64,000 nucleotides of DNA, from contig CANQIL010000001.1 in NCBI GenBank assembly GCA_947624045.1, forward strand, positions 28,978 to 92,977, in the 5' to 3' direction. Position 1 is the stretch's first letter. The number at the start of each line of letters is the position of its first letter. Below the pieces are notes generated by a model that saw only the letters and a program-made list of their open reading frames with translations, did no database searches and was not told where the DNA came from. The position numbers and the translations under genes were made by a program. Origin of the DNA: an uncultured Bacilli bacterium. Its GTDB lineage: Bacteria; Bacillota_I; Bacilli_A; RF39; UBA660. Positions 7,937 through 62,539 of this stretch are shown piece by piece.

Positions 7937-9961
7937 TTATGGCACAAAGGACAAGCGACAAGAATAATTTGGATTAGAATATCCATTATTAAAGAACACA
8001 CTAAACACTCCAGCGTCTGTATTACGACTGTAATAGCCACCACGGACAAGCCACGAGGAAGTGCGACTAACAAATTCAGTTTTATCACTATACCAATTAG
8101 CTGTTTCTAACAAACTATGACCATAACAATTTTCTCCGTTGCAAGCTGATTCTAGCTTAGCTAATGCCCAATCTTCCATTGTTGGATTGGCACTTTTATA
8201 TTTGTTATAATATTCAGTGTTAGGTAATTCATATATTCCTGTTGGATTACCCTCTTTATCTAAGCCTTTAAATCCCGAACTTCCTAAATTATCTCCTGCT
8301 GCAATTTGTCCATTATTCTCTCCTACTCCTTGCGCATCATATTCTAATACTCCCATTACATATTCAGAAACTCCTCCACTTATATCATAAATACCATATA
8401 TTGTTCCAGTTGTACTTGCTCCTGGACCTGCTTGACCTTTTCCTGTTCCTAAATTAGTTATATTATTATAAAAAAATTGTTGTTGATTTGTTTCATATTG
8501 ACTTGATGTTCCATTACTGCTTCCCGTTAAATAATAACTTGATTTATTTTGATATATTTCTTTATTTACTCCTATATAATTTTTGTTTCCATATTTGCCA
8601 TATTTACTTTGGGATAGATAGGCGACTGTTCCCCATTCATCATTTTTCATCATGTGTAAATTGCCACTAGCACTAAAGCCATAATTGTTTGCATAGTGTA
8701 GTTGCATACTCCTAGCCATATAGAAAAAACTACTTACTGTTTGATTTCTTATAGATGAAAGGCCAGGTTTTACTGTTACATTACTTACATTACAATTTGT
8801 ATCAATACAAGCTTGAACATCTGATAATAAATTACCTGTTGGTTCAAACTTTCCTACCCATAGGCCACTTCTCTTTTCCCCACCAAAATCAAAGGCTTCA
8901 TTAGTACGCCAATTGGTTGGTGTATCTCCTGTATATTGTGCACTTCCTGTTTCTGTTACTTTCGAAATAAACTTTACATCTATTTCGCCTGGTAAATCTT
9001 CCGTTGGATTATCGTTACCAAAACTGGCTTTTCCAAAATAAGCTTTGCCATTTTCACTTTTTATGGTATATGAGTATCTTGGTATCCACACCCACATGGT
9101 ATTGATATAATCCATCTCTATTGAAGTTCCAACTGCTGCTTCTTTTATTTCATCTCGTTTATCGGCAATTATTGTTACAGCATTGGCCCATTTTTGATTA
9201 GAGTAGTCATACCAATTATTATTCTCATTATTTATATCAGCTTTTTTCCATGTGCCTTCTGTTGCACTAGTTGCTTCATAATATACTGGTATCATATCGC
9301 CATTTAATTCTGGTTTGTTTGGTATATTATCTAGGCTTGAACCATTTTGTCCTTCTGCTTCTTCTTTTGTTAAACTTTCAAAGATAAAGCCTCTATCTAA
9401 TCCTCCTAAAGTAACAGGATTTTTAGGAATGTCTTCGGCACTATGACTAAAGGTTACTCTTAAAGTTACTATTTCTTGTGTTTCTGCTTTTAATAAATCA
9501 ATACTAGAAAAGTCAGTATTTCCATTAATAGCTGTTTTACTATAATTGACCTCATATACTACATTATTTTTTAATAAATCTTGATCACTTGAAGCAGTCT
9601 TACCACTTCCTACAAATGTTAAATTAGAACTTTTGCCTGTTACGTCTACTAATTTAGCAGAAATAGTTCCGGTATTTTTTACAGGAATAGTAAAAGTACA
9701 AGAATCTCCTGGTTTAGTAAATTCGACACTCATTCCAGAAATACTAGTCCCATCAATTGTACCTATACTACATTTAGCCATTCCTGCCTTGGTAGTTTGT
9801 ATTTCATCTTTTAAAAATACTACGTCCCACGTACTAGCCGGCACTTTTGCTGTACCTGTTATATTTAATCTTGTTGACAATAAAGCATAACCAATTGACA
9901 AGACAAGTACTGCTGCGCAAAGACAAGCTATTATAATTAATTTAGTTTTTCTACTATTCAT
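7937..9961 (-). CDS. secreted or surface protein, paralog 1 of the 20282..22366 product (C-terminal C-type-lectin/FGE-like domain); function unknown
   Basis: N-terminal signal anchor KLIIIACLCAAVLVLSIGYALLS. Long blocks shared with the paralog: PELNGDM.PVYY, MDYINTMWVWIPRYSYTIKSENG, HMMKNDEWG.VAYLSQS.YGKYGN, GKGQAGPGASTTG, YVMGVLEYDAQ. Tail ...RGGYYSRNTDAGVF...SCRLSFVP. Confidence 0.8.
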   Translation of the reverse strand: MNSRKTKLIIIACLCAAVLVLSIGYALLSTRLNITGTAKVPASTWDVVFLKDEIQTTKAGMAKCSIGTIDGTSISGMSVEFTKPGDSCTFTIPVKNTGTISAKLVDVTGKSSNLTFVGSGKTASSDQDLLKNNVVYEVNYSKTAINGNTDFSSIDLLKAETQEIVTLRVTFSHSAEDIPKNPVTLGGLDRGFIFESLTKEEAEGQNGSSLDNIPNKPELNGDMIPVYYEATSATEGTWKKADINNENNNWYDYSNQKWANAVTIIADKRDEIKEAAVGTSIEMDYINTMWVWIPRYSYTIKSENGKAYFGKASFGNDNPTEDLPGEIDVKFISKVTETGSAQYTGDTPTNWRTNEAFDFGGEKRSGLWVGKFEPTGNLLSDVQACIDTNCNVSNVTVKPGLSSIRNQTVSSFFYMARSMQLHYANNYGFSASGNLHMMKNDEWGTVAYLSQSKYGKYGNKNYIGVNKEIYQNKSSYYLTGSSNGTSSQYETNQQQFFYNNITNLGTGKGQAGPGASTTGTIYGIYDISGGVSEYVMGVLEYDAQGVGENNGQIAAGDNLGSSGFKGLDKEGNPTGIYELPNTEYYNKYKSANPTMEDWALAKLESACNGENCYGHSLLETANWYSDKTEFVSRTSSWLVRGGYYSRNTDAGVFSVFFNNGYSNPNYSCRLSFVP

Positions 9962-19553: not shown

Positions 19554-19844
19554 TTATTTTTCTTCTACTTTGACAACTAAATGACGAAGTAGATTTTCAT
19601 TAATTCTTGCGACACGGTCAAATTCTCTTATAGCTTCTACAGGAGATTCTATAGTGTATAGATAGTAGTATCCTGTTTGAAATTTGTTAATTTCATAAGC
19701 TAGTTCTCTTTGGCCCATAGCTTTTTCTTCAATAATTGTTGCTTTTTCATCAGTTAATACCTTTTTCATATCTTCAGCTATTTTTTTGATTTGTGCTTCT
19801 TCAATGTCAGGTCTTACGATGAAAGTAATTTCATATTTGTTCAT
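19554..19844 (-). CDS. rpsF: 30S ribosomal protein S6
   Basis: MNKYEITFIVRPD.... GGAGGTG lies 7 nt upstream of this ATG. First gene of rpsF-ssb-rpsR. Confidence 0.93.
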   Translation of the reverse strand: MNKYEITFIVRPDIEEAQIKKIAEDMKKVLTDEKATIIEEKAMGQRELAYEINKFQTGYYYLYTIESPVEAIREFDRVARINENLLRHLVVKVEEK

Positions 19845-19963
19845 TTTTTGCACCTCCTTTTGGACTTATGGCTATCAAAGATAGCAAGGAGTATTAAAAT
19901 ACTCGGTATTATTATAGCAAACAAAAGTTTATTTGTAAACAACTTTTAAATCAAATTTTTTGG

Positions 19964-19998
19964 ATAAAAAAAGGTTAATTCTAGAAATTCGACCTTTT
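19964..19998 (-). terminator. rho-independent terminator downstream of the template-like repeat
   Basis: Minus strand AAAAGGU..AAUU-ucuag-AAUU.ACCUUUU followed by a U run. Separates the cassette from the rpsF promoter (TTTACA, 17-nt spacer, TATAAT). Confidence 0.55.
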
Positions 19999-20008
19999 GC
20001 CTGAAATA

Positions 20009-20170
20009 GAGTAAATCGCTCTATGGCACGAGAGCTAAACGGCAAGAGTAGTTGCTGTGGGAATAGCCAGAGTTGTTGTGCACCGTCTAGAACACTCCTG
20101 CATTCGTGGTATTGTTGTAGTTGCCGCCGCGTTTGAACCACGGGTTACTGCGGTTGACAAAGTTGGCATA
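20009..20170 (-). repeat. DGR-like template repeat (TR), noncoding GC-rich copy of the 3' end of the upstream gene
   Basis: Homologous to 20264-20428. Carries an in-frame TAG. The 81-nt core 20090-20170 has AAC x5, AAT x2 and AAA where the coding copy varies. Confidence 0.7.
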
Positions 20171-20216
20171 GCAAAACAACCGAGAAACAGAGAAACTTTT
20201 TACGAATAAATCCCTA

Positions 20217-20249
20217 GCGCCCACCTCTGGAAAAAGAGGAGGTGGGCGC
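20217..20249 (-). repeat. GC-rich hairpin between VR and TR
   Basis: Perfect 11-bp stem GCGCCCACCTC / GAGGTGGGCGC with an 11-nt loop, 33 nt past the stop codon. Confidence 0.6.
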
Positions 20250-20263
20250 AGGCCAAAGCAAAA

Positions 20264-20428
20264 GAGTAAATCGCTTACGCTCTATGGCGCGAAAGCCAAG
20301 CGACAAGAGACGTCGCTGTAGGAAATGCCAGAGTTGTCGTACACGTGGAACACTCCCGCACCCGCGGCATCGCTGTAGCTGCCGCCACGTAGGAACCACG
20401 GGTAACTGCGGATGACAAAGGTGGCATA
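20264..20428 (-). repeat. DGR-like variable repeat (VR): last 49 codons plus 18-nt 3' flank of the 20282..22366 gene
   Basis: The core 20348-20428 differs from the TR core at 14 positions, and 13 of these are adenines in the TR sense strand. Locally GC-rich in an AT-rich gene. Confidence 0.7.
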
Positions 20429-22366
20429 ATCACCGTACCAACTCGAAGTTTCTGATAAAGCGTGTCCATAACACACCCCTCCATTACAAGCTGATTCCGG
20501 TTTGGCTGATGACCAAGTGCTTGATGTTGGATTAGCACTTTTGTATTTATTGTAGTATTTCTCATTTGGCAAATCATAACTTCCTGTTGTACTACTTCCA
20601 CTACTATTTAACCCCCTAAATCCTGATGAACCTGCCACGATTTGTCCGCTATGTTCATCTTCTTCTTGAGCATCATATTCTAATACACCCATTACATATT
20701 CATATGCTCCTCCCGACATATCATATATTCCTGTTATATTTCCAGTTGTTGAAGCACCAGGTCCTGCTTGACCTTTTCCACTTTCTAAATTAGTCATATC
20801 ATTATAGACATAGCTTATTGCTGAACTACTTGCACTTGGACTTCCTCCACTATGTCCTGTTATATAGTTACTATCATTATTTATATATACTTCTTTATTA
20901 GCTCCTGTATATTCACTATTTCCATATTTGCCATATCTACTTTGGGAAAGGTATGCTACTGCTCCCCACTCATCATTCTTCATCATATGTAAGTCGCCAT
21001 TATTTTCATCAAATCCATAAGTACTTGCATTATTTTCTTGCATACTTCTTGACATAAAGTAGAAATTGCTTACTTTTTTACTTCTTATTGAAGCTATACC
21101 CGGTTTTACCGTTACACTACTTACATCACAACTTGTATTTGTACAACTTGAAACTGTACCTGTTGGCTCAAATTTTGAAACCCATATTCCTCCTCTTTTT
21201 GTTGGAGTATTGACTTCTTCATCAGTTTCAGGAAAATCAAAAGCTTCATTTGTATACCAACCACTTACTTCATCACCTATGTACCTAGCACTTCCTGTTT
21301 CTCTTTCATCTTCTTTCGATATGAATTTTACATCTACTTCTCCTGGCAATTTTTGGGTTGGCATTGTACAAGATGTTTTCTTACCATAATAATTTGTTCC
21401 TCCATTTTCACTTTTTATTGTATATGAATATCTTGGTATCCATACCCACATCGTATTTATGTAATCCATATCTATTGGAGTATTTACTTCATATTTTTTT
21501 ACTTCTTCTCGCCTATCGGCAATTATTGTTACGGCATTTGCCCACTCTTGATTAGCGTAATTATACCAACTATTATTTAAGTTATTTTCATCGGCTTTCC
21601 GCCACTCACCATTTTTATCATTTATTTTATAATAATATACCGGTACCATATCGCCATTTAATTCTGGTGGATTTGGTGTTGTTGGCTCCTCTACTGTTGG
21701 TGCATATCCATTTATAACTATGTCTTCTAATACATTATCGATTATTATAGTTTCATTAGAAAAGGTATAATCAGTATAATTTCTTCCGTCCATTGTTACA
21801 CTACATACTTCCGAATCTTTTCCTAAATTTTGTTTTAATTGTCCACCTTCTAAGACTTCTTGTACGTAATCATCAGTATTGCCTAGACCATTGTAAGTAA
21901 CAGTATAAATTGGAACAAATTCAAAAGTTAATAAATATGTTTTTGTTTCTGCTTGAGTTGAATTAAAGGTAATAGTGAATTCTTTAATACCACCTGAGCC
22001 TACTAATTTAGTACCTATCATATTTTCTTGTACTTCTACATTTTCATCAGTATCATATATTTCTAAAATACCCATATTTACTGTAGAATAATTAGTAATT
22101 TCAACTGTATAAGTAATACTAGTTGCTTGTTCTAAGGTATTTGTATAGCCTAACTTTACTTGATTCTTAGAATAATCTGAGTATTCTATGGTAACATTAT
22201 CCGGTTTACTATTAGCAGTAAAGTTAGTTACTCTAACATCTTCTTGAGGGCGATAATTTACTTCACCACTTATTTTTAAATCGCTATTTAAAGCAGAATA
22301 ACCTATACTCATACCTATTACAATTACTGCTATTAAGATTAGAATATATTTATTGTACTTTTCCAT
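20282..22366 (-). CDS. secreted or surface protein, paralog 2, with a C-terminal C-type-lectin/FGE-like domain; candidate DGR target
   Basis: Signal anchor MEKYNKYILILIAVIVIGMSIGYSALNS aligns with the paralog-1 N-terminus. Shared central and C-terminal blocks. Tail ...WFLRGGSYSDAAGAGVFHVYDNSGISYSDVSCRLAFAP. The ORF-track ATG at 22417 overlaps the predicted -10 box and was rejected. Confidence 0.85.
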   Translation of the reverse strand: MEKYNKYILILIAVIVIGMSIGYSALNSDLKISGEVNYRPQEDVRVTNFTANSKPDNVTIEYSDYSKNQVKLGYTNTLEQATSITYTVEITNYSTVNMGILEIYDTDENVEVQENMIGTKLVGSGGIKEFTITFNSTQAETKTYLLTFEFVPIYTVTYNGLGNTDDYVQEVLEGGQLKQNLGKDSEVCSVTMDGRNYTDYTFSNETIIIDNVLEDIVINGYAPTVEEPTTPNPPELNGDMVPVYYYKINDKNGEWRKADENNLNNSWYNYANQEWANAVTIIADRREEVKKYEVNTPIDMDYINTMWVWIPRYSYTIKSENGGTNYYGKKTSCTMPTQKLPGEVDVKFISKEDERETGSARYIGDEVSGWYTNEAFDFPETDEEVNTPTKRGGIWVSKFEPTGTVSSCTNTSCDVSSVTVKPGIASIRSKKVSNFYFMSRSMQENNASTYGFDENNGDLHMMKNDEWGAVAYLSQSRYGKYGNSEYTGANKEVYINNDSNYITGHSGGSPSASSSAISYVYNDMTNLESGKGQAGPGASTTGNITGIYDMSGGAYEYVMGVLEYDAQEEDEHSGQIVAGSSGFRGLNSSGSSTTGSYDLPNEKYYNKYKSANPTSSTWSSAKPESACNGGVCYGHALSETSSWYGDYATFVIRSYPWFLRGGSYSDAAGAGVFHVYDNSGISYSDVSCRLAFAP

Positions 22367-22412
22367 TTTTGCAAACACCTTTTTTCCACCAATTATATTT
22401 TTATCTAAGTAT

Positions 22413-22443
22413 ATCATACCCCCCCCCCATTAGGTCTTGTCAA
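22413..22443 (-). promoter_or_regulatory. candidate sigma-A promoter with a homopolymeric G10 spacer
   Basis: Minus strand TTGACA-agacctaatGGGGGGGGGG-TATGAT. The spacer is 19 nt, against an optimum of 17. Confidence 0.6.
22419..22428. repeat. homopolymer tract C10 (G10 on the coding strand)
   Basis: Ten consecutive C read directly from the sequence. Exceptional in this AT-rich context. Confidence 0.95.
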
Positions 22444-24734: not shown

Positions 24735-24756
24735 AAAAAAGACTTAATATTAAGTC
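24735..24756 (-). terminator. rho-independent terminator of the two-gene islet operon
   Basis: Perfect palindrome GACTTAATATTAAGTC overlapping the stop codon, followed on the minus strand by UUUUUU. Confidence 0.6.
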
Positions 24757-25181
24757 CATAGTGGCATCTTTCTTATCTCATTTGCAGAATTATCGGCATA
24801 ATAAGCGGTAATAAACTTTGCTGTATTATTACTATTAATTCTAATAATTACAACATAATCTTCTGGACTTATTATAGCAACTCGTCTATCTTTGTTATAT
24901 CTTTTTTTATCTCTATCCCATCCTAAATGCAATTCGGCTTTAGGATTTTTTAATACATATTCTATCCAATCAATTCTTAATGCTCTATTCTCAGAAAACA
25001 CATCTTTATTTCGCTTTAATTTATTTGAAGATTCATAAAATGCGTGTTCAAACTGATCTTCATAAAATTTAACTTCAATTCCATCAAATGTTTGTATTCC
25101 TTTTTTACAGTATTTTTCTACATAATATTTTTTATATTCATCTGGAGTAGATAAAATTACAAAACTTGGCACGTCATACAT
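24750..25181 (-). CDS. hypothetical protein
   Basis: 143-aa ORF separated by 1 nt from the upstream DUF3800-like ORF. No motif recognised with confidence. Confidence 0.6.
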   Translation of the reverse strand: MYDVPSFVILSTPDEYKKYYVEKYCKKGIQTFDGIEVKFYEDQFEHAFYESSNKLKRNKDVFSENRALRIDWIEYVLKNPKAELHLGWDRDKKRYNKDRRVAIISPEDYVVIIRINSNNTAKFITAYYADNSANEIRKMPLWT

Positions 25182-25182
25182 A

Positions 25183-25878
25183 TTATAACCTTATTTCAAA
25201 TAAATTGAATTTTGTAGCATTTTTAGTAGTTGGTTTCAATTCGTGCCCTAATTTAGTTTCAAGATAACTAATTAATTCTAACTTAACTTTTGAATTACCA
25301 TCTTTGCCAAAATTCATTTTATATGATGTTGCACCCATCAATATATCTTCTAATTGTAGAAAAACTGACTCATGTGACTCTATAGCATATATTTTCTCTA
25401 TACTATTAGGATGATTCTTATTATTTAAACATTTCTTTAAATCATTTAGTACATTTGGATCGCTATAAGTTTTTATATCTGTATATATTGTATATTTTGA
25501 TTCTGATGAAATCCAATTATTTAATAATTGATAATAGAACTTATAAAACCCCAATTCAGCATTATCATTATGATACTTTAAATCTATCTTATTTGAGTCT
25601 ATGCAAATTGTTCTAAAATTAATGTTATGAGTAACATATATATCTATCATTTCTTTATATAAATTTAAATACTTTTTAGTCACTCTATTCCATTTTAATT
25701 CAGTTTTAATGTTTAGATTATACTTTTTTTTCAAATCATTTATTTTGTTTTTTATTTCTAACCTATCATCTCTACTAATCATTACTCCACCAATAAATAT
25801 ATATTTATTTGTATTAGATATAACTTCTTTATTATAGAAAAGGTCTTGTCTGCTTTCGTCACAATATAATTCTATCAT
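25183..25878 (-). CDS. DUF3800-like protein
   Basis: N-terminal IELYCDES resembles the DUF3800 y.DESG motif. GAGGTG lies 5 nt before this ATG. Confidence 0.55.
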   Translation of the reverse strand: MIELYCDESRQDLFYNKEVISNTNKYIFIGGVMISRDDRLEIKNKINDLKKKYNLNIKTELKWNRVTKKYLNLYKEMIDIYVTHNINFRTICIDSNKIDLKYHNDNAELGFYKFYYQLLNNWISSESKYTIYTDIKTYSDPNVLNDLKKCLNNKNHPNSIEKIYAIESHESVFLQLEDILMGATSYKMNFGKDGNSKVKLELISYLETKLGHELKPTTKNATKFNLFEIRL

Positions 25879-25941
25879 TACATCACCTCGAATTACAAAC
25901 ATATTATACTATATTTCTACATATTTTTTAAGTATTTTTCA

Positions 25942-46444: not shown

Positions 46445-48955
46445 GTGGATAGATTAGAGAAAAATAATATTGTTAAAGAGGTACAAGATTCTTTCTTAGA
46501 TTATTCAATGAGTGTTATTACGGCTCGTGCTATTCCTGACCTTAGAGATGGTTTGAAACCGGTACATCGTCGTATTTTATATTCAATGTTTGTATCTGGT
46601 TATACGCCTGATAAGCCACATAGGAAGAGTGCTAAGACAGTCGGTGAGGTTATGGGTAATTTCCATCCGCATGGAGATTCTTCTATTTATGAAGCTATGG
46701 TTAGAATGGCTCAAGATTTTTCTTACCGATATATGTTAATTGATGGGCATGGTAATTTTGGTAATATTGAGGGATATGGAGCTGCGGCTATGCGTTATAC
46801 TGAGTCGCGTTTGTCTAAGATTTCTCTAGAATTATTAAGAAATATCAATAAAGATACAGTTGATTTTATTCCTAACTTTGATGAAAGTGAGAAAGAGCCT
46901 ACAGTTTTGCCATCTCGTTTTCCAAATATTTTGGTAAATGGAACTACGGGTATAGCGGTTGGTATGGCTACGAATATTCCTCCTCATAATTTGGGTGAGG
47001 TTATTGATGGCTGTGTTGCTTATATTGATAATCCGGATATTGATTTAGATGGGTTGATGAAGTATATTAAGGGTCCTGATTTTCCGACTGGTGCGATTAT
47101 TTTAGGAAATAGTGGTATTAGAAAGGCTTATGAAACGGGTAGAGGAACAATTACTATTCGTAGTAAAGCGCAAATTGAGGAGAAAAATGGTAAGCAATAT
47201 ATTATAATTGATGAGGTTCCTTATGGGGTTAATACTTTGGAGCTTAAAAATAAAGTGGCCGAGCTTGTTCATAATAAGGTAATTGATGGTATTAGTGATT
47301 ATCATTCTGATTTGAAAGATGGTATAAAGATAACTATTACTTTAAAGAAAGATGCTAATGCGCAGGTTGTTTTAAATAAGTTGTACAAGCATACGGCTTT
47401 TCAAACTAGTTATGGTATAATCTTTTTAATGTTAGACCAAGGGGTACCTAAGACTTTGGGTCTTAAGGATATTATCGTTAAATACATTGATTATCAAAGG
47501 GAAGTAATTATTAGAAGAACGAAGTTTGATTTAGATGTAGCGGAAAAAAGAGTTCATATTTTAGAGGGCTTAAAGATTGCTTTGGATAACATTGATGCGG
47601 TTATTAAGTTAATTCGTGGGTCTGATAGTGATGATGAGGCTAGAGCTGGCTTGATGGAGAACTTTAAGTTAACGGAGATTCAGGCTAATGCAATTCTTGA
47701 GATGAGATTACGTCGTTTGACTGGTTTGGAACGTGAGAAAATTGAGAATGAGTTAAAGGATTTGCTTGCGACTATTGAGGAGTTGAAGTCTATTTTAGCT
47801 AGTGATGAGAAGATTTTGGAAGTTATAAAGAATGAGCTTCTTGAAATTAAGGCTAAATATGATGATGAAAGACGTACGAATATTGATATGACGGCTATTG
47901 AGTATATCGAAGATGAGTCTTTAATTCCTGAGGAAGATATTATTGTTACTTTGACAAATAATGGTTATATTAAGAGATTACGTACGGATACTTATCGTAC
48001 ACAGAACCGTGGTGGTGTAGGTATCAAGGGTATGTCGACGAATGAGGAAGATTTTGCTAAGCATTTGGTTTCTATGAAAACTCATGATTACATTTTGTTC
48101 TTCTCTAATAAGGGTAGAGTCTATAGAATGAAAGGTTACGAGATTCCGGAATTTTCTAGACAGTCTAAGGGATTACCTATTGTTAATTTATTGCCATTAG
48201 AAAAAGAAGAGAACATAAGTTCGATAGTAGATTTAAAGGCTAGTGATGATGATTTTACTAAGTATTTGGTTTTTGCTACTAAAGATGGTATTGTTAAGCG
48301 TACGGCAATTGAAGAGTTTGATAATATTAGGAAAAGTGGTAAGATTGCGATTGTTTTAAAGGAAAATGATGAGCTTATCAGTGTTCGAAAGAGCTGTGGA
48401 AAAAATGAAATTATAATCGGAGCTAGTAATGGTAGAATGGTTCGTTTTGATGAAAATGAAATTCGTTCTATGGGACGTAGTAGTTCTGGTGTTAAAGGTA
48501 TTGACCTTGAGGGTAGTAAGGTTGTAGGAGCTGAGGTTATTCAACCTGGTGAGTATGTCTTGATTGTTACTGAAAAGGGTTATGGTAAAAAAAGTTTAAT
48601 TGATGAGTATAGACTAACACATAGAGGTAGTAAGGGTGTTAAGGCTTACAATATTACTGATAAAAATGGTACTATGGTTGCTTTGAAGACATTTAATGGT
48701 GATTATGAAAAAGAATTAGATGTTATTGTTGTTACGGATAGTGGGGTATTTATGAAGATGCCATTAGACCAGATTTCTACTTTGAAACGTGCTACGCAAG
48801 GTGTTAGATTGATTAATTTGAAAGATGAGCAATTGGTATCAACTGTTACTATTGTAAAGAAAGAGGAAGAGATTCCTGATGATGACAGTGATAGTGATAG
48901 TGAGAACTCAGAGGTTACTGCTACAGATACGGTTGTGGAAAGAACTGAAGAGTAG
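46445..48955 (+). CDS. gyrA: DNA gyrase subunit A
   Basis: GTG start. Active-site region AAMRYTE, QRDR-like [14 protein letters not shown], acidic C-terminal tail. Confidence 0.98.
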
Positions 48956-49235
48956 TTAAAGTAAAAAATTAACTTAGTTATAAAGGGTAAATCGATAGTG
49001 GTTTACTCTTTTTTTGTAAAATAGTTTTGTGTTTTATGTAAATTTTTGTCTGTGGAAAAAATATTTTTTGAGTAGAATAGTTTTTTCTTTTGAATTAATG
49101 TGTTAGAAATTTGTAGATATTTTATGTGAGTGTAATAGTAACAGGTATTTTGATAATTAGTTTAAATAGTTATATTACTATCACTGTAAAAATTGTGTCT
49201 GTGGATATTTATTTTATAAAAATATATAGTAAATT

Positions 49236-49249
49236 ATTTCCCGGGAAAT
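49236..49249. promoter_or_regulatory. Noc-binding site (NBS), perfect ATTTCCCGGGAAAT
   Basis: Exact match to the B. subtilis NBS palindrome. Embedded in a 24-bp perfect palindrome AAATTATTTCCCGGGAAATAATTT. Confidence 0.75.
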
Positions 49250-49294
49250 AATTTAGTGAAAATGAAGATAAAATATTATAAGCAAAAAATATAA

Positions 49295-49310
49295 TGTTCC
49301 ACGTGAAACA
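49295..49310. promoter_or_regulatory. parS: parS centromere site, perfect TGTTCCACGTGAAACA
   Basis: Exact 16/16 match to the Firmicute parS consensus TGTTNCACGTGAAACA. Confidence 0.85.
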
Positions 49311-49591
49311 ACAATTCAAATTTGAAATGTGTTTTTATTATTTTTAGTTAATTATTTAAAGTCAAAAAATTGTGGTAATTGAAATAAAAATTATCTTATT
49401 TTTTAATAATTTAATATAATGTCATTATCAATATGTCGAAGTGTGCTTTTTAATCAATTGTTAAAGATAGACGAAGAAAGTATTTAGATATCTATTTATT
49501 ATTTTGATATTTATTAAAATTAATAGATATTTTGCTTAATGATGTAAAATTGTGTCTGTGGATATTTTATTTTATATAACTATAGTAAATT

Positions 49592-49605
49592 ATTTCCCGG
49601 TAAAT
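49592..49605. promoter_or_regulatory. NBS-like site with one mismatch (ATTTCCCGGTAAAT)
   Basis: 13/14 match to the NBS. Same flanks as the other copies. Confidence 0.55.
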
Positions 49606-49646
49606 AATTTGCTGAAATAAAGATAAAATATTATAAGAAAATGAAA

Positions 49647-49662
49647 TGTTTCACGTGGAACA
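49647..49662. promoter_or_regulatory. parS: parS site, perfect (TGTTTCACGTGGAACA, opposite orientation)
   Basis: Reverse complement of TGTTCCACGTGAAACA. Confidence 0.85.
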
Positions 49663-49698
49663 TAGTAGATATATGGTAAAACTAACATAAGAAAAAAT

Positions 49699-49712
49699 AT
49701 TTCCCGGGAAAT
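49699..49712. promoter_or_regulatory. NBS, perfect ATTTCCCGGGAAAT
   Basis: Exact match. Confidence 0.75.
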
Positions 49713-49754
49713 AATTTATTGGAAAAGAAGATAAAATATTATAAGAAAATGAAA

Positions 49755-49770
49755 TGTTTCACGTGGAACA
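49755..49770. promoter_or_regulatory. parS: parS site, perfect (TGTTTCACGTGGAACA)
   Basis: Exact match in reverse orientation. Confidence 0.85.
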
Positions 49771-49806
49771 TAGTAGATATATGGTAAAACTAACATAAGA
49801 AAAAAT

Positions 49807-49820
49807 ATTTCCCGGGAAAT
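49807..49820. promoter_or_regulatory. NBS, perfect ATTTCCCGGGAAAT
   Basis: Exact match. Confidence 0.75.
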
Positions 49821-49862
49821 AATTTATTGGAAAAGAAGATAAAATATTATAAGCAAATATAA

Positions 49863-49878
49863 TGTTCCACGTGAAACA
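49863..49878. promoter_or_regulatory. parS: parS site, perfect TGTTCCACGTGAAACA
   Basis: Exact match. Confidence 0.85.
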
Positions 49879-50315
49879 TTAAATTAGTATTTACTTTTTT
49901 TATTCTTGTCTTTGACAGTTGTTGAATGAAATAACTCTCTAAACTATTAAAAAATAAGGAAAAAATGAGAGCTTTTTTTCTCAAAAAAGTTGCGTACCTT
50001 TCTACTTATTTAATCACTAGAAAAATTTTTTTAGAAATTAGTTAAAAGCTTGTTTTTAAGCCAAATTCTTGAGGTACATTCATTTTTATACAGTTTATGT
50101 CTTACAAATGTTACTCCTTTAGATAGTATTATTATAGGATTCAAATTTAAAATCTTCTATTATCTTTTATTAATCATTTATAGTCATTTGTAGAATCTAT
50201 TTTTAGTTTTAATAATTTAATTATCTCATGACAGGTTGTTTTTTAGAACAAGTGTCAAAGATAGGTGGATATTTTATTTTATAAAAATTTATTGAAATAT
50301 TATAAGAAAATAAAA

Positions 50316-50331
50316 TGTTTCACGTGGAACA
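50316..50331. promoter_or_regulatory. parS: parS site, perfect (TGTTTCACGTGGAACA)
   Basis: Exact match in reverse orientation. Confidence 0.85.
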
Positions 50332-50375
50332 TAGTAGATATATGGTAAAACTAATAACTAAACATAAGAAAAAAT

Positions 50376-50389
50376 ATTTCCCGGGAAAT
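50376..50389. promoter_or_regulatory. NBS, perfect ATTTCCCGGGAAAT
   Basis: Exact match. Confidence 0.75.
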
Positions 50390-50429
50390 AATTTACTAAA
50401 ATAAAAATAAAAATTATAAGAAAATACAA

Positions 50430-50445
50430 TGTTCCACGTGAAACA
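50430..50445. promoter_or_regulatory. parS: parS site, perfect TGTTCCACGTGAAACA
   Basis: Exact match, about 50 nt upstream of the SRP RNA. Confidence 0.85.
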
Positions 50446-50489
50446 TTAAATTAGTATTTACTTTTTTTTTATAATAATATAAAATATGT

Positions 50490-50566
50490 TTGTGCAATGA
50501 AAGTGATTGAAACAGGTCAGGATTGGAAAATAGCAGCCTTAAGGTCCTCCTTTCATGTGCACTTTT
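50490..50566 (+). ncRNA. ffs: small (4.5S-type) signal recognition particle RNA
   Basis: Domain IV core CAGGUCAGGAUUGGAAAAUAGCAGCCUUAAGG parallels E. coli CAGGUCAGGUCCGGAAGGAAGCAGCCAAGG (GGAA tetraloop, AGCAGCC). Closing helix GUGCAAUGAAAG / CUUUCAUGUGCAC, then a T run. Confidence 0.8.
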
Positions 50567-50587
50567 TATTTTGGAGTTGAAAAAATT

Positions 50588-51031
50588 ATGAAAAATGAGT
50601 TTTTTGATTTGGCTTTTGCTGAAGCTGAAAAAGCTTTTAACATAAATGAAGTCCCTATTGGTGCTGTTATTGTTAAAGATGGAAAAATTATTGCTAAAGG
50701 TCATAATATTAAGGAAAATCAACGAAATGTTATTTGCCATGCTGAGATGTTAGCTATTAATGAAGCTTCAAAAGTTTTAAATAATTGGCGTTTAAGCGAC
50801 TGCGATATTTATGTAACTTTGGATCCTTGTCCGATGTGTGCTAGTGCAATTAAGCAAGCTAGAATTAAAAACGTATATTCTGCTTTAGAAAATTTGGATA
50901 AATCTAATAGTGAGATTGTTAATAGAATTTTTGAAAATTCTGATATAAATTCGGCTACTAATTTTATTACTAATTTATCTGTGGAAAAAGCTAAAAATTT
51001 AATGCAGTCTTTTTTTAAAAATAGACGATAA
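50588..51031 (+). CDS. tadA: tRNA-specific adenosine deaminase
   Basis: Zinc motifs CHAEMLAI and PCPMC. Start at MKNEFF (GGAG upstream), because the ORF-track start at 50555 lies inside the SRP RNA. Confidence 0.9.
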   Translation: MKNEFFDLAFAEAEKAFNINEVPIGAVIVKDGKIIAKGHNIKENQRNVICHAEMLAINEASKVLNNWRLSDCDIYVTLDPCPMCASAIKQARIKNVYSALENLDKSNSEIVNRIFENSDINSATNFITNLSVEKAKNLMQSFFKNRR

Positions 51032-51081
51032 ATTAACGATTTCTTATGATATAATTGATATAGATGGAGGTGCTCTTTTTA

Positions 51082-52779
51082 ATGTATCAAGCTTTGTATA
51101 GAAAGTATCGTCCAACTGATTTTAATTCGGTTGTAGGTCAGGATAGTATTATAAGAACTTTAAAAAATTCGATTATTAATAAAACCTTTACCCATGCATA
51201 TATGTTTTTTGGTCCTAGGGGTACTGGAAAAACGACTATTTCTAAAATTTTTGCTCGTAGTATTAATTGCTTGGAGCCAGTGGATGGTGTTGCTTGTGGA
51301 AAGTGTAAAAATTGTCTAGAATCTTTTAAAAATTCTTGTGTGGATATTATTGAAATTGATGCTGCGTCAAATAATGGTGTTGATGAGATTAGGGAACTTA
51401 GAAGTAAGGTTTCTTTAGTACCTGCGGAATTAAAATATAAAGTTTATATTATTGATGAAGTTCATATGTTATCAATTGGTGCTTTTAATGCCTTGTTGAA
51501 AACTTTAGAGGAACCGCCTGAGCATGTAGTTTTTATTTTAGCAACTACTGACCCACAGAAAGTTCCGGAGACTATTATTTCTAGATGTCAATGTTTTTCT
51601 TTTAAGCGAATTTCTACTGATATGATTGTGGATAGGTTAAAATTTATATGTTCAGAGGAAAATATTTCTATTGATGATGATGTTTTAACTGAAATTGCTA
51701 CATCTTCGGAAGGTGGAATGCGTGATGCTTTAGGTTCTTTGGACAAATTATCTTCTTTTTCAAATTCTAAAATTACTTTAGATGATTTTTATGAGTTAAA
51801 TGGGATGATTACTAAAGGTGAATTAAAGAATTTTTATGATAATTTATTTAGTTATAATATTTCAGAAGTTTTAAAATTAATTTCTGATTATAATAGTGGA
51901 GGTAAAAATTTAATTCAAATATTTACACAAATTATGTTTTCAGTGCGAAATATGATTGTGGATTTTTATATTTCAGGTGTGCAAAGTTCTTATAATGTTG
52001 ATTTAATGCAAGATTTTGTAAATTTAATAAACGAAAATATGTTCGATATAAAAAGAAGCGGAAATCCTAAAATATTTCTGGAAATGTTGGTTATTAAGTT
52101 TATAAAGGAGCATGAATCTTCAAAGTCAACGGATGTTATTGTTAATAAAGAAGAAGTAGTCGTTCAAAGTAATAATGTGGAGAAAGAAGTAAAAAAGGTA
52201 AAAAAAACTGTGGAAATTACGGAAGATAAACCGGTAGAAATTATTTCCCGGGAAATAATTGATGAGAAAAATATTTCCCGGGAAATAAAATTGGATACTT
52301 TGCCAGTTAAAAATATTCAAGAAATTATGGATGCTAGGGTTAATAATATTATGGCTTTGGCTGATAAGAATATTTTAAAGTTGGAAATGCAGAAATTTCA
52401 GTTACTAAATGATTATACGTTTGATCAAAATATAGGATATTTAGTTTGTAGTTTGTTAGATGCTAAGATAAGAGCTGCTAGTGATAAGGGTATTATAATT
52501 AGTTATGAATATGATTCTAATGTTAAGCAAAATTTAATTAATTTAGATAAATTGGTGGAAGTTTATAACAAAATTACAAAATCTAATAAAAGTTTGGCTA
52601 TTATTAGTGATGAAAAATGGGAAATTGAAAAAAATAAGTATATAAAGGCTTTAAAAGAGGGAAAAAAATATCAAGTTATGGAAGAACCTGAAGAAGTCTT
52701 GGAAGAAATTGAAAATAATGATATAATATCAAGTAGTAGTGCAGTTGAGCTTTTTGGCGATATTGTCGAAGTTGAATAG
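51082..52779 (+). CDS. dnaX: DNA polymerase III subunit gamma/tau
   Basis: MYQALYRKYRP, Walker A GPRGTGKTT, zinc module CGKCKNC, and the SRC motif. GGAGGTG lies 9 nt upstream. Confidence 0.95.
   Translation: MYQALYRKYRPTDFNSVVGQDSIIRTLKNSIINKTFTHAYMFFGPRGTGKTTISKIFARSINCLEPVDGVACGKCKNCLESFKNSCVDIIEIDAASNNGVDEIRELRSKVSLVPAELKYKVYIIDEVHMLSIGAFNALLKTLEEPPEHVVFILATTDPQKVPETIISRCQCFSFKRISTDMIVDRLKFICSEENISIDDDVLTEIATSSEGGMRDALGSLDKLSSFSNSKITLDDFYELNGMITKGELKNFYDNLFSYNISEVLKLISDYNSGGKNLIQIFTQIMFSVRNMIVDFYISGVQSSYNVDLMQDFVNLINENMFDIKRSGNPKIFLEMLVIKFIKEHESSKSTDVIVNKEEVVVQSNNVEKEVKKVKKTVEITEDKPVEIISREIIDEKNISREIKLDTLPVKNIQEIMDARVNNIMALADKNILKLEMQKFQLLNDYTFDQNIGYLVCSLLDAKIRAASDKGIIISYEYDSNVKQNLINLDKLVEVYNKITKSNKSLAIISDEKWEIEKNKYIKALKEGKKYQVMEEPEEVLEEIENNDIISSSSAVELFGDIVEVE
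52243..52256. promoter_or_regulatory. NBS, perfect ATTTCCCGGGAAAT, inside the dnaX coding sequence
   Basis: Exact match read in frame as I-S-R-E-I. The flanks extend the palindrome (AAATTATTTCCCGGGAAATAATT). Confidence 0.7.
52273..52286. promoter_or_regulatory. NBS, perfect ATTTCCCGGGAAAT, inside the dnaX coding sequence
   Basis: Exact match 30 bp after the first, again read as I-S-R-E-I. Confidence 0.7.
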
Positions 52780-52790
52780 GAGGAAAGAAT

Positions 52791-53084
52791 ATGAATATGC
52801 AAGCAATGTTAAAGCAAGCCCAAGCTTTACAAAAAGATATGTTAAAAATAAAGGATGGAATTGATAAAACAGAATTTAATGGTGAAAGCTCTTTTGTTAA
52901 AGTTGTAGTTATGGGAGATAAAACTTTAAAAAGTGTTAAGATAGATGCAGAAAATTTGGATAATGATGATATTGAAGCTCTTGAAGATATGATTGTTGTT
53001 GCGATAAATGAAGCAAATAAGAAAATTGATGAGGAAACTGAAAAGAAAATGAGTAAATTTGGTAATATTCCAGGTTTATTCTAG
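52791..53084 (+). CDS. ybaB: nucleoid-associated protein YbaB/EbfC
   Basis: 97 aa, MLKQAQALQKDM... Conserved dnaX-ybaB-recR order. Confidence 0.92.
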   Translation: MNMQAMLKQAQALQKDMLKIKDGIDKTEFNGESSFVKVVVMGDKTLKSVKIDAENLDNDDIEALEDMIVVAINEANKKIDEETEKKMSKFGNIPGLF

Positions 53085-53092
53085 GAAATGTT

Positions 53093-53689
53093 ATGTATCC
53101 TGATAGTATTAAAAATTTGATAGAATCATTTAAATATTTGCCTGGTATAGGTGAGAAAACAGCTGAAAGGTTGGCTTTTTCTGTCTTAGAATTGGAAGAT
53201 GAGCAAACGGATTTTTTTAGAGAGAGCCTTAAGGATGTTAAGGAAAAAGTTCATAAGTGCAAAAAATGTAATTCTTTGACTGAAGATGATGAGTGTTATA
53301 TTTGTAAAGATGAAAGTCGTCAAAATGGAACACTTTGTGTTGTTGATGATACCAAAAATGTAATTCTTTTCGAGAAATTGGGTGTTTTTCAAGGAAAGTA
53401 TCATGTTTTAAATGGACTGATTTCTCCACTTGAGGGGATAAATCCTGAGGATATTGGCATTGATATTTTGATTGATAGGATTACTAAAGAAAAATTTAAG
53501 GAAATTATATTTGCTTTTAAGCCTAGTATAGAGGGTGAAACGACATCATTATATATAAAAAAGATATTAGATGGTATGGATTTAAAGATTACTAGATTAG
53601 CAAGTGGTGTTCCTATGGGTGCAGACATGGAATATTTGGATAGTCTAACTTTGGAAAGAGCAATTAATGATAGAAAAGAAATTGAATAA
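53093..53689 (+). CDS. recR: recombination protein RecR
   Basis: HhH LPGIGEKTAERLAF, zinc finger CKKC...CYIC, Toprim domain. Confidence 0.95.
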   Translation: MYPDSIKNLIESFKYLPGIGEKTAERLAFSVLELEDEQTDFFRESLKDVKEKVHKCKKCNSLTEDDECYICKDESRQNGTLCVVDDTKNVILFEKLGVFQGKYHVLNGLISPLEGINPEDIGIDILIDRITKEKFKEIIFAFKPSIEGETTSLYIKKILDGMDLKITRLASGVPMGADMEYLDSLTLERAINDRKEIE

Positions 53690-53748
53690 TTAAAAATATT
53701 TTTCATACTCTTTATAAAGAGATAAATTTGTTAGGAAAGGATAAGGGT

Positions 53749-53934
53749 ATGAATAAAATTTTTTATTGTTTAAAGAGATTTATACTTAGTGCATTTATTT
53801 TATATGGTTATAATTTGTTTTCTGTTAATTTTAATATGATTATTCCTATTAATTTTGTAACTTTAGGTATGATTTTTTTGTTGGGGGCACCTGGATTAGT
53901 TGCTTTAGTGTTATTTAAAATTATTTTATTATGA
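53749..53934 (+). CDS. bofA: BofA-family pro-sigma-K processing inhibitor
   Basis: About 60-aa two-TM protein with LGAPGL motif. Position after recR as in Bacillus. Start at MNKIFY. Confidence 0.65.
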   Translation: MNKIFYCLKRFILSAFILYGYNLFSVNFNMIIPINFVTLGMIFLLGAPGLVALVLFKIILL

Positions 53935-53945
53935 GGTAGATAATA

Positions 53946-54794
53946 GTGGTGGAGTCTGTAGTAAAGCAAAAATTTTTTGAAATAGTTGATAATTATATAA
54001 ATAATAAGAAAATATCCCATGCTTATTTAATTGAAGTTGGTAATTATGAAGAGGACTTTTTGGATGTTTTGGAATTTGTTAAAATGATTCTTTGTAATTG
54101 TACGAAAGATAATTTAAAAAACGATAAGACAAATATAGGTAGTTTGATAGATACGTTTAATTATCCGGATTTGAAAATTATTGAGGCAGATGGTCAGTGG
54201 ATAAAAAAGAATCAATTGGTTGAATTAATTGATGACTTTCAAAATAAATCATTACTTGATAATAAAAGAATTTATATAATTAAAGAAGCTGAAAAATTAA
54301 ATAGTTCTTCAGCTAATACAATTTTGAAATTTTTAGAGGAGCCAGAAGAAAATATTGTGGCTATTTTGCTTACTAAAAATAGGTTTCAAGTAATTGAAAC
54401 TATTTTGTCTAGGTGTCAACTTTTAACTTTAGGTTGTGAAAATGAAAATTATAATATTGATGATAATGTAAAATTATTTTTAGATTATCTTATTCATAAG
54501 AATGAATTATTTATTAATTATGGTACAATAGTTACAGAGGTAATGCCTGATAAGAATCAAGCTAAAATTATTTTGAATGAAATTAGTCAAGTAATAATTA
54601 GTTATATTAATTATAGTTCTAATAAAGAATATGCTTGCTCGGTTGAAGTTATTAATCTTTTGCAAGGAGTAGAACTTGAATTTTTAACAAATGTTCTTTC
54701 AATAATTGAAGAAGAAATAGCTAAACTTGAGTATAATGTAAATTATAAACTTTGGCTTGATTGTTTGTTTGCTCGAATTATTTTGGAAAGTTAA
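53946..54794 (+). CDS. holB: DNA polymerase III delta-prime subunit
   Basis: GTG start after GAGGTAG. HAYL motif, LKFLEEP and SRCQ motifs. Confidence 0.85.
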   Translation: MVESVVKQKFFEIVDNYINNKKISHAYLIEVGNYEEDFLDVLEFVKMILCNCTKDNLKNDKTNIGSLIDTFNYPDLKIIEADGQWIKKNQLVELIDDFQNKSLLDNKRIYIIKEAEKLNSSSANTILKFLEEPEENIVAILLTKNRFQVIETILSRCQLLTLGCENENYNIDDNVKLFLDYLIHKNELFINYGTIVTEVMPDKNQAKIILNEISQVIISYINYSSNKEYACSVEVINLLQGVELEFLTNVLSIIEEEIAKLEYNVNYKLWLDCLFARIILES

Positions 54795-54857
54795 TACTTA
54801 AAAAAATTATTGTTTTAGAGTTTATAGAAATGGATTTTGTAATGGAGGATTAAAGAA

Positions 54858-55646
54858 ATGGTTGATGTAGTTGTTGTTAGTGTTAGACATTTAGGAAATA
54901 TATACTATCTTTCACCGGGTGACTGGAATTTGAAAAAGGGTGATAATGTAGTTATTAATACGGAAAATGGTATGCAGATTGGTGTTGTAGTTAAGGCTAA
55001 GTATAAAGAAAAGGCAGAAAATTTAGTGTTGCCTCTTGATAAAATAGTAAGACTTTGTACGGAAGCAGATATAAGAAATGATAATGAAAATAAAAAGCAG
55101 GCAGTTGAAGCTTTGGCATATGCTAAAGTTTGTAAAAATGATTTAGGGTTAGATATGAATTTTGTTGATTCTTATTATAATTTGGATAAGTCGCAGTTAG
55201 TTTTTTCGTTCGTTTCAGAAAATAGAATTGATTTTCGTGATTTGGCTAAGAAATTGGCGCAGAAATATAGAACGAGAATTGAGTTAAGACAAATTGGTGT
55301 TAGAGATAAGGCTAAGCGAGTAGGTGGTATTGGACCTTGTGGATTATTTTTATGTTGTAATACGTTTTTAACAGACTTTAATAGTGTTTCTATAAATATG
55401 GCAAAAAATCAATTTTTAGCTTTAAATCCAGCAAAGATAAACGGTGTATGTGGAAGACTTCTTTGTTGTTTAGGATATGAAAACGATGTATATTCTGAAT
55501 TAAAAGTTGATTTGCCCCAATTAGGTATGATGGCGGATACTAGTATGGGAATGGGAAAAGTTGTAGAGGTTGATATTTTTAAACAAACTTATAAAGTTGA
55601 ATTAGGTGAAAAAGGTATTATAGAATTTTCTAAGGATGAAAAGTAA
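54858..55646 (+). CDS. ricT: PSP1-domain protein YaaT/RicT (stage 0 sporulation)
   Basis: PSP1 C-terminal domain with a cysteine cluster (GPCGLFLCC...CGRLLCCL). Conserved after holB. Confidence 0.85.
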   Translation: MVDVVVVSVRHLGNIYYLSPGDWNLKKGDNVVINTENGMQIGVVVKAKYKEKAENLVLPLDKIVRLCTEADIRNDNENKKQAVEALAYAKVCKNDLGLDMNFVDSYYNLDKSQLVFSFVSENRIDFRDLAKKLAQKYRTRIELRQIGVRDKAKRVGGIGPCGLFLCCNTFLTDFNSVSINMAKNQFLALNPAKINGVCGRLLCCLGYENDVYSELKVDLPQLGMMADTSMGMGKVVEVDIFKQTYKVELGEKGIIEFSKDEK

Positions 55647-56386
55647 TGGAAGTAATTAATGATATTTTAGGTTATAAAAATAGAAAAATTTATCAAGATA
55701 CTAATTGTTTTTCTTTTTCATTAGATAGTGTTATGTTGGCGAACTTTGCGACAATACGTATGAGGGATAAAAATATTGTTGATTTAGGTACAGGAAATGG
55801 AGTTATTCCTTTAATAATGACTCTTAGAACTGATAAAAAAATTATTGGTGTTGAGTTACAGAAAAAATTGAGTAATTTAGCTTGCAAATCGGTTTCTTTG
55901 AATAAGTTAGATGAAGCTATTGAAATAGTGAATAAAAATATGAAAGATTTTTGTAGTGATACCAACAATATTAATAAGTTTGATTTAGTTGTTTGTAATC
56001 CACCTTATTTTAAAGTGAATGTGGATAAGAATTATTTTAATGAATCGGAGGAAAAATTAATTGCTAGACATGAGGTGGGAATAACATTAGAGGAAGTATT
56101 TGCTTGTGTAAAAAAAATTATTAGTAATGATGGTAATTTTGCAATAGTGCATAGACCAGAGAGATTATTGGAAATACTTGATTTATATCGAAAAAATGGA
56201 ATTGAGCCTAAGAAAATTAGATTTGTTTATGAAACGGTAGAAAAGGAATCTAATTTGGTATTAATTGAGGGACAACGTAATGGAAAAGTTGGTTTAAAAA
56301 TTGAAAAGCCTTTTATTTTATATAATAGTGACGGTAGTTATAGTGATGAATATAAAAAATTATTGGTGGAGGTTAAGAGTGAATGA
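55646..56386 (+). CDS. SAM-dependent methyltransferase (YabB / tRNA m6A37-type)
   Basis: DLGTGNG and NPPYF motifs. Confidence 0.8.
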   Translation: MEVINDILGYKNRKIYQDTNCFSFSLDSVMLANFATIRMRDKNIVDLGTGNGVIPLIMTLRTDKKIIGVELQKKLSNLACKSVSLNKLDEAIEIVNKNMKDFCSDTNNINKFDLVVCNPPYFKVNVDKNYFNESEEKLIARHEVGITLEEVFACVKKIISNDGNFAIVHRPERLLEILDLYRKNGIEPKKIRFVYETVEKESNLVLIEGQRNGKVGLKIEKPFILYNSDGSYSDEYKKLLVEVKSE

Positions 56387-57222
56387 TTCAAAAAAGTTTT
56401 GATGGTAGGAGTAGTTTATATTTAATACCAACTCCAATTGGTAATTTAGATGATATAACGGTACGAGCTTTGAAAACTCTACAAATGGTTGATTTTATTT
56501 TATGTGAGGATACACGGGAAACTTCTAAATTGTTAAATAGTTATGATATAAAAAATAAGTTAGTTAGTTGTCATGAGTATAATGAGGAAAAAATAAAGGC
56601 TAATGTTATTGAGTCTTTAAAAGAGGGTAAAAATATTGGTTTAGTTACGGACCAAGGAACGCCTGTTATTAGTGACCCAGGCTATATTATTGTAAGGGAA
56701 GTTATAAGAAATAATTTTAATGTAATAAGTTTGCCTGGAGCAACGGCTTTTGTTCCAGCTTTAACGGCTTCGGGTATAGAGCCGGCTAAGTTTTTGTTTT
56801 ATGGCTTTTTAAATGCTAAGAATGCTAAGCAAAAAAGTGAGCTTGAGGGTTTAAAAAATTTGAAATATACAATAATATTTTATGAAAGTGTTCATCGTAT
56901 TCACGATACATTGCAGAATATCTTGGATGTTTTTGGCGATAGAGAAGTTGCGATTGGACGGGAAATTTCTAAAGTGCATGAAGAATACATAAGAGGAAAA
57001 TTAAGTGAAGTTATAAAATGTGAGCTTAATTTGAAAGGGGAATTTGTTATAGTAGTTGAGGGTAATAAAGAAGTTACTAACTATGATGATATAAGTGTTA
57101 TTAATCATGTTAAATTATATGTTAATGATGGTATGAGTGAGAATGAGGCTATAAAAAAAGTAGCTAAGGAAAGAAATGTAGCTAAATCTTTGATATATAA
57201 AGAATATCATATGAATAAGTAG
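56383..57222 (+). CDS. rsmI: 16S rRNA (cytidine1402-2'-O)-methyltransferase
   Basis: LYLIPTPIGNLDDIT.RAL......ILCEDTR signature. Confidence 0.93.
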   Translation: MIQKSFDGRSSLYLIPTPIGNLDDITVRALKTLQMVDFILCEDTRETSKLLNSYDIKNKLVSCHEYNEEKIKANVIESLKEGKNIGLVTDQGTPVISDPGYIIVREVIRNNFNVISLPGATAFVPALTASGIEPAKFLFYGFLNAKNAKQKSELEGLKNLKYTIIFYESVHRIHDTLQNILDVFGDREVAIGREISKVHEEYIRGKLSEVIKCELNLKGEFVIVVEGNKEVTNYDDISVINHVKLYVNDGMSENEAIKKVAKERNVAKSLIYKEYHMNK

Positions 57223-57233
57223 GAGGAATTTAG

Positions 57234-57803: not shown

Positions 57804-57878
57804 TAGAGAAAAGCTAATAAAAAATAAAAGTTGCTTTTTAGAATAAAAAAAGTAAAATTTTTTTAGGTCTTAAAGTAC

Positions 57879-62516: not shown

Positions 62517-62539
62517 TATTTTATGTGCTATACTATGTC

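Follow-up and report, generated by a model that had tools for sequence, protein, structure and literature searches.

A probable non-adjacent target of a chromosomal diversity-generating retroelement, with an apparently chimeric template-repeat copy beside it, in an uncultured gut Bacilli bacterium

Introduction

The diversity-generating retroelement (DGR) of Bordetella phage BPP-1, laid out as mtd-avd-TR-brt, transfers sequence from a template repeat (TR) to a variable region (VR) in an adenine-specific manner, and it encodes an Avd protein that forms a four-helix bundle and a reverse transcriptase (RT) with the motifs IGxxxSQ and YMDD. Its VR ends in an adenine-free, GC-rich IMH with a hairpin downstream, and this phage hairpin has a tight tetraloop. 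Targets that are not adjacent to the retroelement have been described for 45 of 372 DGRs, with that of Treponema as the extreme case (PMC5758913), and in Treponema denticola one RT/Avd/TR cassette is combined with an adjacent target, TvpA, and at least one remote paralogue (PMC5758913). In this and other non-adjacent-target DGRs the VR differs from the TR at adenines only and lies in a C-terminal variable domain with a C-lectin/FGE-like fold, while a further C-lectin DGR variable protein is known from Thermus aquaticus (TaqVP, 5vf4). It has also been proposed that RNA motifs associated with RT genes, among them RT-14, play roles in DGRs, and in BPP-1 the RNA between TR and RT is RT-10 (PMC5737381).

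Here we describe a related arrangement in a 64,000-nt stretch of DNA from an uncultured Bacilli bacterium, referred to below as the window. It is probable that the tail of one gene of the window (target B) is a non-adjacent VR of a chromosomal DGR, the cassette of which, with a full-length template (the master TR) and a second target (target A), lies beyond the window, and that the TR-like block next to target B is a chimeric scar of gene conversion with no role as template. The system resembles that of Treponema denticola in combining a single cassette with an adjacent target and a remote paralogue, and shares with the non-adjacent-target DGRs the restriction of VR changes to adenines and the fold of the C-terminal domain. 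Unlike the elements of Treponema and of Wu et al. 2018, the remote target is accompanied by a truncated, seemingly chimeric TR copy and by a perfect 220-nt copy of IMH, hairpin and spacer; unlike in Treponema, it belongs to a different family, for which no Pfam model passes the threshold and which has a very large membership among gut Bacillota MAGs. With the BPP-1 element it shares adenine-specific transfer, an Avd of the four-helix-bundle type, an RT with both motifs, an adenine-free GC-rich IMH-like sequence with a hairpin downstream, and an RNA between TR and RT, here RT-14. It differs from BPP-1 in being chromosomal, with no phage sign and a position between ftsH and mscL, in having two targets, one on each strand and some 57 kb from each other, and in that the IMH-like 21-mer is the same in TR and VR, which diverge only afterwards. 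Target B is thus a known type of DGR target, its chimeric TR copy is a minor oddity, and our understanding of how DGRs work is unchanged; what is added is a chromosomal two-target DGR for an uncultured, low-GC, spore-forming lineage of gut Bacillota.

The target gene and its variable tail

Target B (20282-22417, minus strand) is a 711-aa open reading frame, the true start of which is possibly M18 at 22366, and it is flanked by ychF and a GNAT gene on one side and by rpsF-ssb-rpsR downstream. Its product carries an N-terminal hydrophobic anchor, compatible with a surface protein, and a C-terminal FGE/C-lectin-like domain at the end of which lies the variable region (VR-B; 20288-20428, minus strand; 141 nt, 47 codons, residues 664-710). 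Twenty-three of these 47 codons are variable, which allows about 10^23.7 different proteins. For the 711-aa protein 3632 homologues were retrieved, in which a conserved C-terminal framework surrounds hypervariable positions (C.GG.CYGHALSET..WY.DY..F....PW..RGG.....AGVF......S.RL.L.P). The target B protein has the same sequence as P0121, the NCBI entry in cluster P0001, and relatives found in a scan of genome contigs from rabbit, human and other gut MAGs are at most 61% identical.

An earlier reading of the window, made from its letters only (the sequence-only reading), had proposed that the tail of this gene and a non-coding block downstream of it form a VR/TR pair. Both homologous blocks were reproduced on the minus strand, as were the counts for their 81-nt cores (20090-20170 against 20348-20428), which differ at 14 positions, namely 13 of 24 adenines and 1 of 57 other bases (Fisher p=7.9e-8), the sole non-adenine mismatch being C>T. 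A pattern made from the core by masking adenines occurs at two sites in the 64-kb window, the two blocks themselves, and in none of 100 shuffles. The 3' parts (20021-20084 against 20282-20345) show the mixed mismatches that had been reported, 14 of 64, together with a 3-nt indel and an in-frame TAG in the downstream copy, and the homology extends 16 nt beyond each stop codon (AGCGATTTACTCT). The two blocks are likewise GC-rich (50% and 57% GC, against 31% in the window and 32% in the rest of the gene), and the view that these islands are template-derived sequence is supported.

The proposed C-type-lectin/FGE-like fold also held. An AlphaFold2 model of residues 240-711 (pLDDT 95.5, pTM 0.95) retrieves TaqVP as its best Foldseek match in the PDB (E=2.8e-9, probability 1.00), with TvpA (2y3c) in fourth place (6e-4) and Mtd at 5.5e-3, followed by formylglycine-generating enzymes and their relatives, so that the modelled domain can confidently be assigned to the C-lectin/FGE fold of DGR variable proteins. 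Identity to TaqVP is only 14-16% and the TM-scores are low (0.33-0.41), and unlike TaqVP the protein of the window has large insertions and an extra N-terminal region. Searches with the target B sequence gave no match in PDB or NCBIfam and no significant one in Pfam, where a sub-threshold FGE-sulfatase match (E=0.0035) was located around the motif GIYDMSGG; target B is therefore placed by structure comparison only.

A complete retroelement on the same chromosome

A scan for the YxDD motif in six frames of the 64-kb window found no RT-type ORF, and Pfam searches with ten ORFs neighbouring target B found no RT. On ENA contigs, on the other hand, a paralogue (P0005, target A), 82% identical to the query over the 58% of the query length that aligns, adjoins bAvd and an RVT_1 gene. 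One of these contigs, ERZ27249368:NODE_119, also encodes the pth gene of the window; two fetched pieces of it were stitched into 40,273 nt, the first 16,767 nt of which match window positions 47234-64000 at 100% identity with no gaps, and the RT locus was read from this sister assembly, identical to the window over the 16.8-kb overlap. For each of P0121, P0005 and the third member of the family, P0032, the NCBI record moreover gives a contig of 161,290 nt, presumably one and the same. The identity of the contigs and the linkage of these proteins indicate that the chromosome of the window carries a complete DGR. The sequence-only reading had regarded the lack of a DGR-type RT from the whole genome as an argument against itself; an intact one is present about 57 kb away.

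The order of the DGR locus is ftsH, target A (903 aa), its variable region (VR-A), hairpin, master TR, a non-coding RNA region of about 300 nt, bAvd, RT and mscL. Projected onto window coordinates, it occupies about 74.8-79.5 kb of the plus strand, opposite to target B, with the RT some 14 kb beyond the right end of the window and the cassette about 57 kb from target B. The master TR is 141 nt long and contains 16 AAY codons, AAA and several single-A codons; VR-A differs from it at 21 of 43 adenines and 3 of 98 other positions. The RT, which follows the master TR at a distance of about 680 nt, matches RVT_1 at 5e-18 and has the motifs IGNYTSQ and YMDD; its best PDB relative is 8ub7_A, which we take to be the bRT of BPP-1 (full length, 8e-45). 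The Avd gene (13277-13615 of L026, the sister sequence containing this locus) matches PF22296 (bAvd) at 1.4e-12 and 48.5 bits, above the 40-bit cut-off, and NF033474 (DivGenRetAVD) at 1.4e-14 and 54 bits, below the 80-bit cut-off of that model.

Between the master TR and bAvd, and immediately adjoining the former, the RT-14 RNA (Rfam RF02921) was found at L026 12987-13128, window-equivalent about 77.8 kb, with 50.4 bits against a gathering score of 48.1, in a region that is conserved with the DGR of a second species (L004). Its position supports the published idea that RT-associated motifs other than RT-10 belong to DGRs (PMC5737381).

The DGR of L004, a rabbit-gut Bacilli MAG (CANQIM010000008), is similar in its target family (59% identity), hairpin, homologous TR, bAvd (80%), RT (72%) and post-TR RNA region, and has the canonical layout of target, hairpin, TR, Avd and RT, with 22 mismatches that affect adenines only. 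Its target adjoins TR, Avd and RT, unlike the locus of the window, which has lost these parts or never had them. L004 differs further in an additional 133-aa ORF (2491-2892) with MutS domain I (PF01624, 8e-8) between TR and bAvd, which is absent from the DGR of the genome studied here; to our knowledge MutS_I proteins have not been described as DGR accessory genes.

The template of the variable region

In a four-way alignment of master TR, VR-A, VR-B and the local copy, VR-B differs from the master TR over its full length at 23 of 43 adenines and at 1 of 98 other positions (p=1e-13). This upholds the claim of the sequence-only reading that the gene tail is a DGR variable region, and the 3' end of the gene has every appearance of a genuine hypervariable region written by a DGR. 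The core of the local copy is identical to that of the master TR (0 of 24 adenines and 0 of 57 other bases changed), and consequently it cannot tell the two templates apart; the statistics of the sequence-only reading had in effect measured the master TR. It is the 3' half that discriminates. Here VR-B differs from the master TR at 10 of 19 adenines and 0 of 41 other positions, and from the local copy at 6 of 13 adenines and 10 of 47 other positions, in addition to the 3-nt indel, so that VR-B fits the master TR and not the local copy. The 3' half of VR-B is purely adenine-specific against the master TR, and what had been taken for an IMH/IMH*-type boundary is adenine mutagenesis relative to a remote, full-length template.

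An adenine-free 21-mer, TCTTGTCGCTTGGCTTTCGCG, at the 3' end of VR-B (20288-20308, minus strand) is the same in VR-A, VR-B and master TR, and TR and VR sequences part immediately after it; it is predicted to be a real IMH-like element. At 38 nt downstream of it lies a GC-rich hairpin (20217-20249, minus strand) with a stem of 11-14 bp and an 11-nt loop, unlike the tight tetraloop of the BPP-1 hairpin. Folded as DNA it has z=-4.8, and 0 of 200 shuffles were equally stable. The hairpin is identical at VR-A and VR-B and is conserved after the VR in L026 and L004, in the latter with a compensatory G-C to A-T change at the base of the stem, and it is a candidate for the target-recognition hairpin of the DGR. 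It was also considered as an intrinsic terminator of target B and rejected, given that it lacks a T tract, has an 11-nt loop, was not flagged by a terminator scan and is associated with DGRs at two other loci.

The downstream copy and its origin

The local block (20005-20170, minus strand) consists of two dissimilar parts. The 81 nt of its 5' core (20090-20170) are 100% identical to the core of the master TR, with all 24 adenines intact. The remainder (20005-20089) looks like a relic of an older VR end: the positions of AAC and AAT in the master TR read CAC, TCT, TAT, CAC and TAC, the IMH (20027-20047) is degenerate, with mismatches at 5 of 21 positions and all five of them transitions, and there are a 3-nt insertion with the in-frame TAG, a CCATAG stop codon of its own and, after it, 16 nt of VR-type 3' flank, in which 6 nt are deleted. 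Since the TRs of this lineage (L004 and L026) lose homology to the VR at the IMH, the 3' part of the local copy is evidently VR-derived, and the block is, as far as can be judged from its sequence, a chimera of a TR core and an old VR.

Equipment of the kind that follows the master TR was likewise sought around this block. An RT-14 search of 19700-20500 returned no match even at E<=10, the conserved post-TR motif does not occur in the window when up to 3 mismatches are allowed, and the relic bears no similarity to the conserved post-TR region. The element is bounded by the rpsF promoter (19911-19939, minus strand; TTTACA-17-TATAAT with TG), which begins about 70 nt past the block and leaves no space for Avd or RT after it. 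The downstream block is thus not the complete or self-sufficient TR for which it had been taken, and lacking post-TR RNA, Avd and RT it is most likely unable to act as a working template. A literature search for truncated, orphan or second TR copies was unproductive.

The origin of the block is suggested by a shared tract of 220 nt (20090-20309, minus strand), the longest common substring of the two loci, which is perfectly identical to L026 12685-12904 and spans IMH, stop codon, flank, hairpin, spacer and TR core. Around it the gene bodies of targets A and B are only 75-95% identical and target A has an insertion of about 640 nt, so that the identity of the tract would reflect recent gene conversion between the loci. 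Every adenine in the tract is unchanged, including the 24 of the TR core, which points to transfer at the DNA level rather than through the RT; an RT-mediated origin from a long read-through cDNA was ruled out on the same ground. Ectopic gene conversion between targets A and B is seen directly between strains: in a patch of 137 nt (21201-21337, minus strand), target B of a sister strain from ENA (L001) has the target-A sequence at 8 of 8 differing sites, including a 6-nt indel. We infer that the local block was left as a scar when the master cassette and the paralogous gene at this locus, target B, underwent out-of-register gene conversion. The relic, with its divergence of about 15% at non-adenine positions next to zero in the 220-nt tract, would imply either an older divergence of the relic or repeated conversion.

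The two 220-nt copies are also inverted repeats that flank a 57-kb segment with dnaA, dnaN, gyrB and gyrA, and ERZ27249370 NODE_211 (57,274 nt) has its two ends exactly at the two copies. Recombination between the copies could invert this segment, and with it the origin region, and bring the Avd-RT module to target B in place of target A; the inverted arrangement was seen in none of the available assemblies.

Alternative explanations and present activity

The simplest alternative is that 20005-20170 is a working TR for the VR at 20264-20428, with an IMH*-type 3' boundary and an RT elsewhere. The adenine-specific pattern of the 81-nt core would be expected under such an arrangement, and the order of VR, hairpin and TR mimics the canonical layout of L004 and L026. 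However, the core is shared with the master TR and does not discriminate between templates, the 3' half fits the master TR only, the local copy has the rpsF promoter directly after it in place of an RT-14-matching post-TR RNA, and its 3' end bears a stop codon and VR-type flank, as no TR of the lineage does; a self-contained local pair is therefore very improbable. Still less credit can be given to the idea that the local copy is an assembly artefact, created by misjoining across the repeat that recurs at the master DGR locus. It is true that the exact 220-nt repeat occurs at two loci and that ERZ27249370 breaks exactly at both copies, yet the window/NCBI contig and, independently, ERZ27249363 NODE_108 agree on this join, the complementary join (from VR-A through the 3' half of the master TR to Avd) is found in two other contigs, the relic at 20005-20089 is unique and must have something before it, and the flanking synteny of ychF, the target gene and rpsF is coherent.

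A question of a different nature is whether VR-B is still being rewritten. It may have been written by the DGR in the past and then frozen, either in a quiescent element or because remote homing is negligible, and we regard this as an unlikely but serious possibility. The four or five available assemblies agree completely in VR-A and likewise in VR-B, although the genes differ elsewhere by substitutions and the conversion patch: VR-B is the same in the window/NCBI and ENA strains, with differing gene bodies (two haplotypes per target among 4-5 consensus assemblies from neighbouring accessions, a weak test), and VR-A is the same in P0005 and P0122 from these same few consensus assemblies. There is thus no sign of turnover since the strains split, and of the polymorphism among strains anticipated by the sequence-only reading none appears in the available VRs. 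These consensus assemblies, however, come from neighbouring ENA accessions and could stem from a single study and a single clone. In JGI metagenomes no match was obtained to the master TR with its adenines masked. Against a frozen target stand the intact RT and Avd ORFs with their catalytic motifs, the perfect copies of IMH and hairpin, the identity of VR-B to the master TR at 97 of 98 non-adenine positions and its 59% GC in a genome of 31% GC; the relic and the tail of the third paralogue, by contrast, have decayed to 47% and 41% GC. Intact ORFs, perfect cis elements, non-adenine identity and GC content speak in favour of recent writing of VR-B.

Proposed mechanism and significance

In the reading preferred here, homing would proceed in three steps, a scheme inferred from established DGR biology. 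The master TR would be transcribed together with the RNA element downstream of it, bAvd-RT would make adenine-mutagenised cDNA from this RNA, and the cDNA would replace any VR that has a matching adenine-free IMH (20288-20308) and a downstream GC hairpin (20217-20249), both of which are present at VR-B as copies identical to those of VR-A. In the conversion that left the scar, the donor TR may have been aligned out of register with the old VR of the recipient; the ychF-rpsF locus would have acquired a new VR with IMH and hairpin in this way, and half a TR would have stayed behind. On a more tentative note, and with rather less than an even chance of being correct, the chimeric block could be the footprint of a DGR that recruited a paralogue, or re-armed it, as a remote target and left a dead half-TR there.

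Several consequences follow for the study of such elements. Finding a TR-like repeat beside a VR does not suffice to establish a local, self-sufficient DGR, and where a cassette has been partly copied, detectors based on TR/VR pairs as well as human readers may assign the wrong template; in the present case the true one can be identified only via the 3' half of the repeat and sequence outside the window. The locus is also a concrete case of gene conversion moving IMH and hairpin between paralogues, which is a plausible route to a larger repertoire of targets.

Additional features of the window

A third member of the target family (P0032, 674 aa) is encoded at 7937-9961 on the minus strand. Its VR-equivalent tail has 41% GC, shows no adenine-specific relation to the TR and is followed by an ordinary terminator at its end; the gene does not look like a current DGR target, and would be either a former one or never one.

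A DUF3800 gene (PF12686, 3.5e-11) and, directly downstream of it, a 143-aa ORF with a weak DUF4258 match occupy 24750-25902 on the minus strand. Structured RNA motifs have been described in association with DUF3800 genes (PMC5737381), and none of these was detected at 24750-25902 at the Rfam gathering score. A T-box leader (RF00230, 111.6 bits) is located at 62541-62749 on the plus strand, and about 270 nt downstream of it the sister contig shows a gene for a class-I aminoacyl-tRNA synthetase (Pfam tRNA-synt_1g). Finally, a 108-nt tandem repeat (49587-49879; 2.7 copies, 93% match), with further dispersed copies to about 50468, lies in the non-coding gap of about 1.6 kb after gyrA, just upstream of the SRP RNA (50481-50575), and contains the palindromes TTTCCCGGGAAA and TGTTTCACGTGGAACA.
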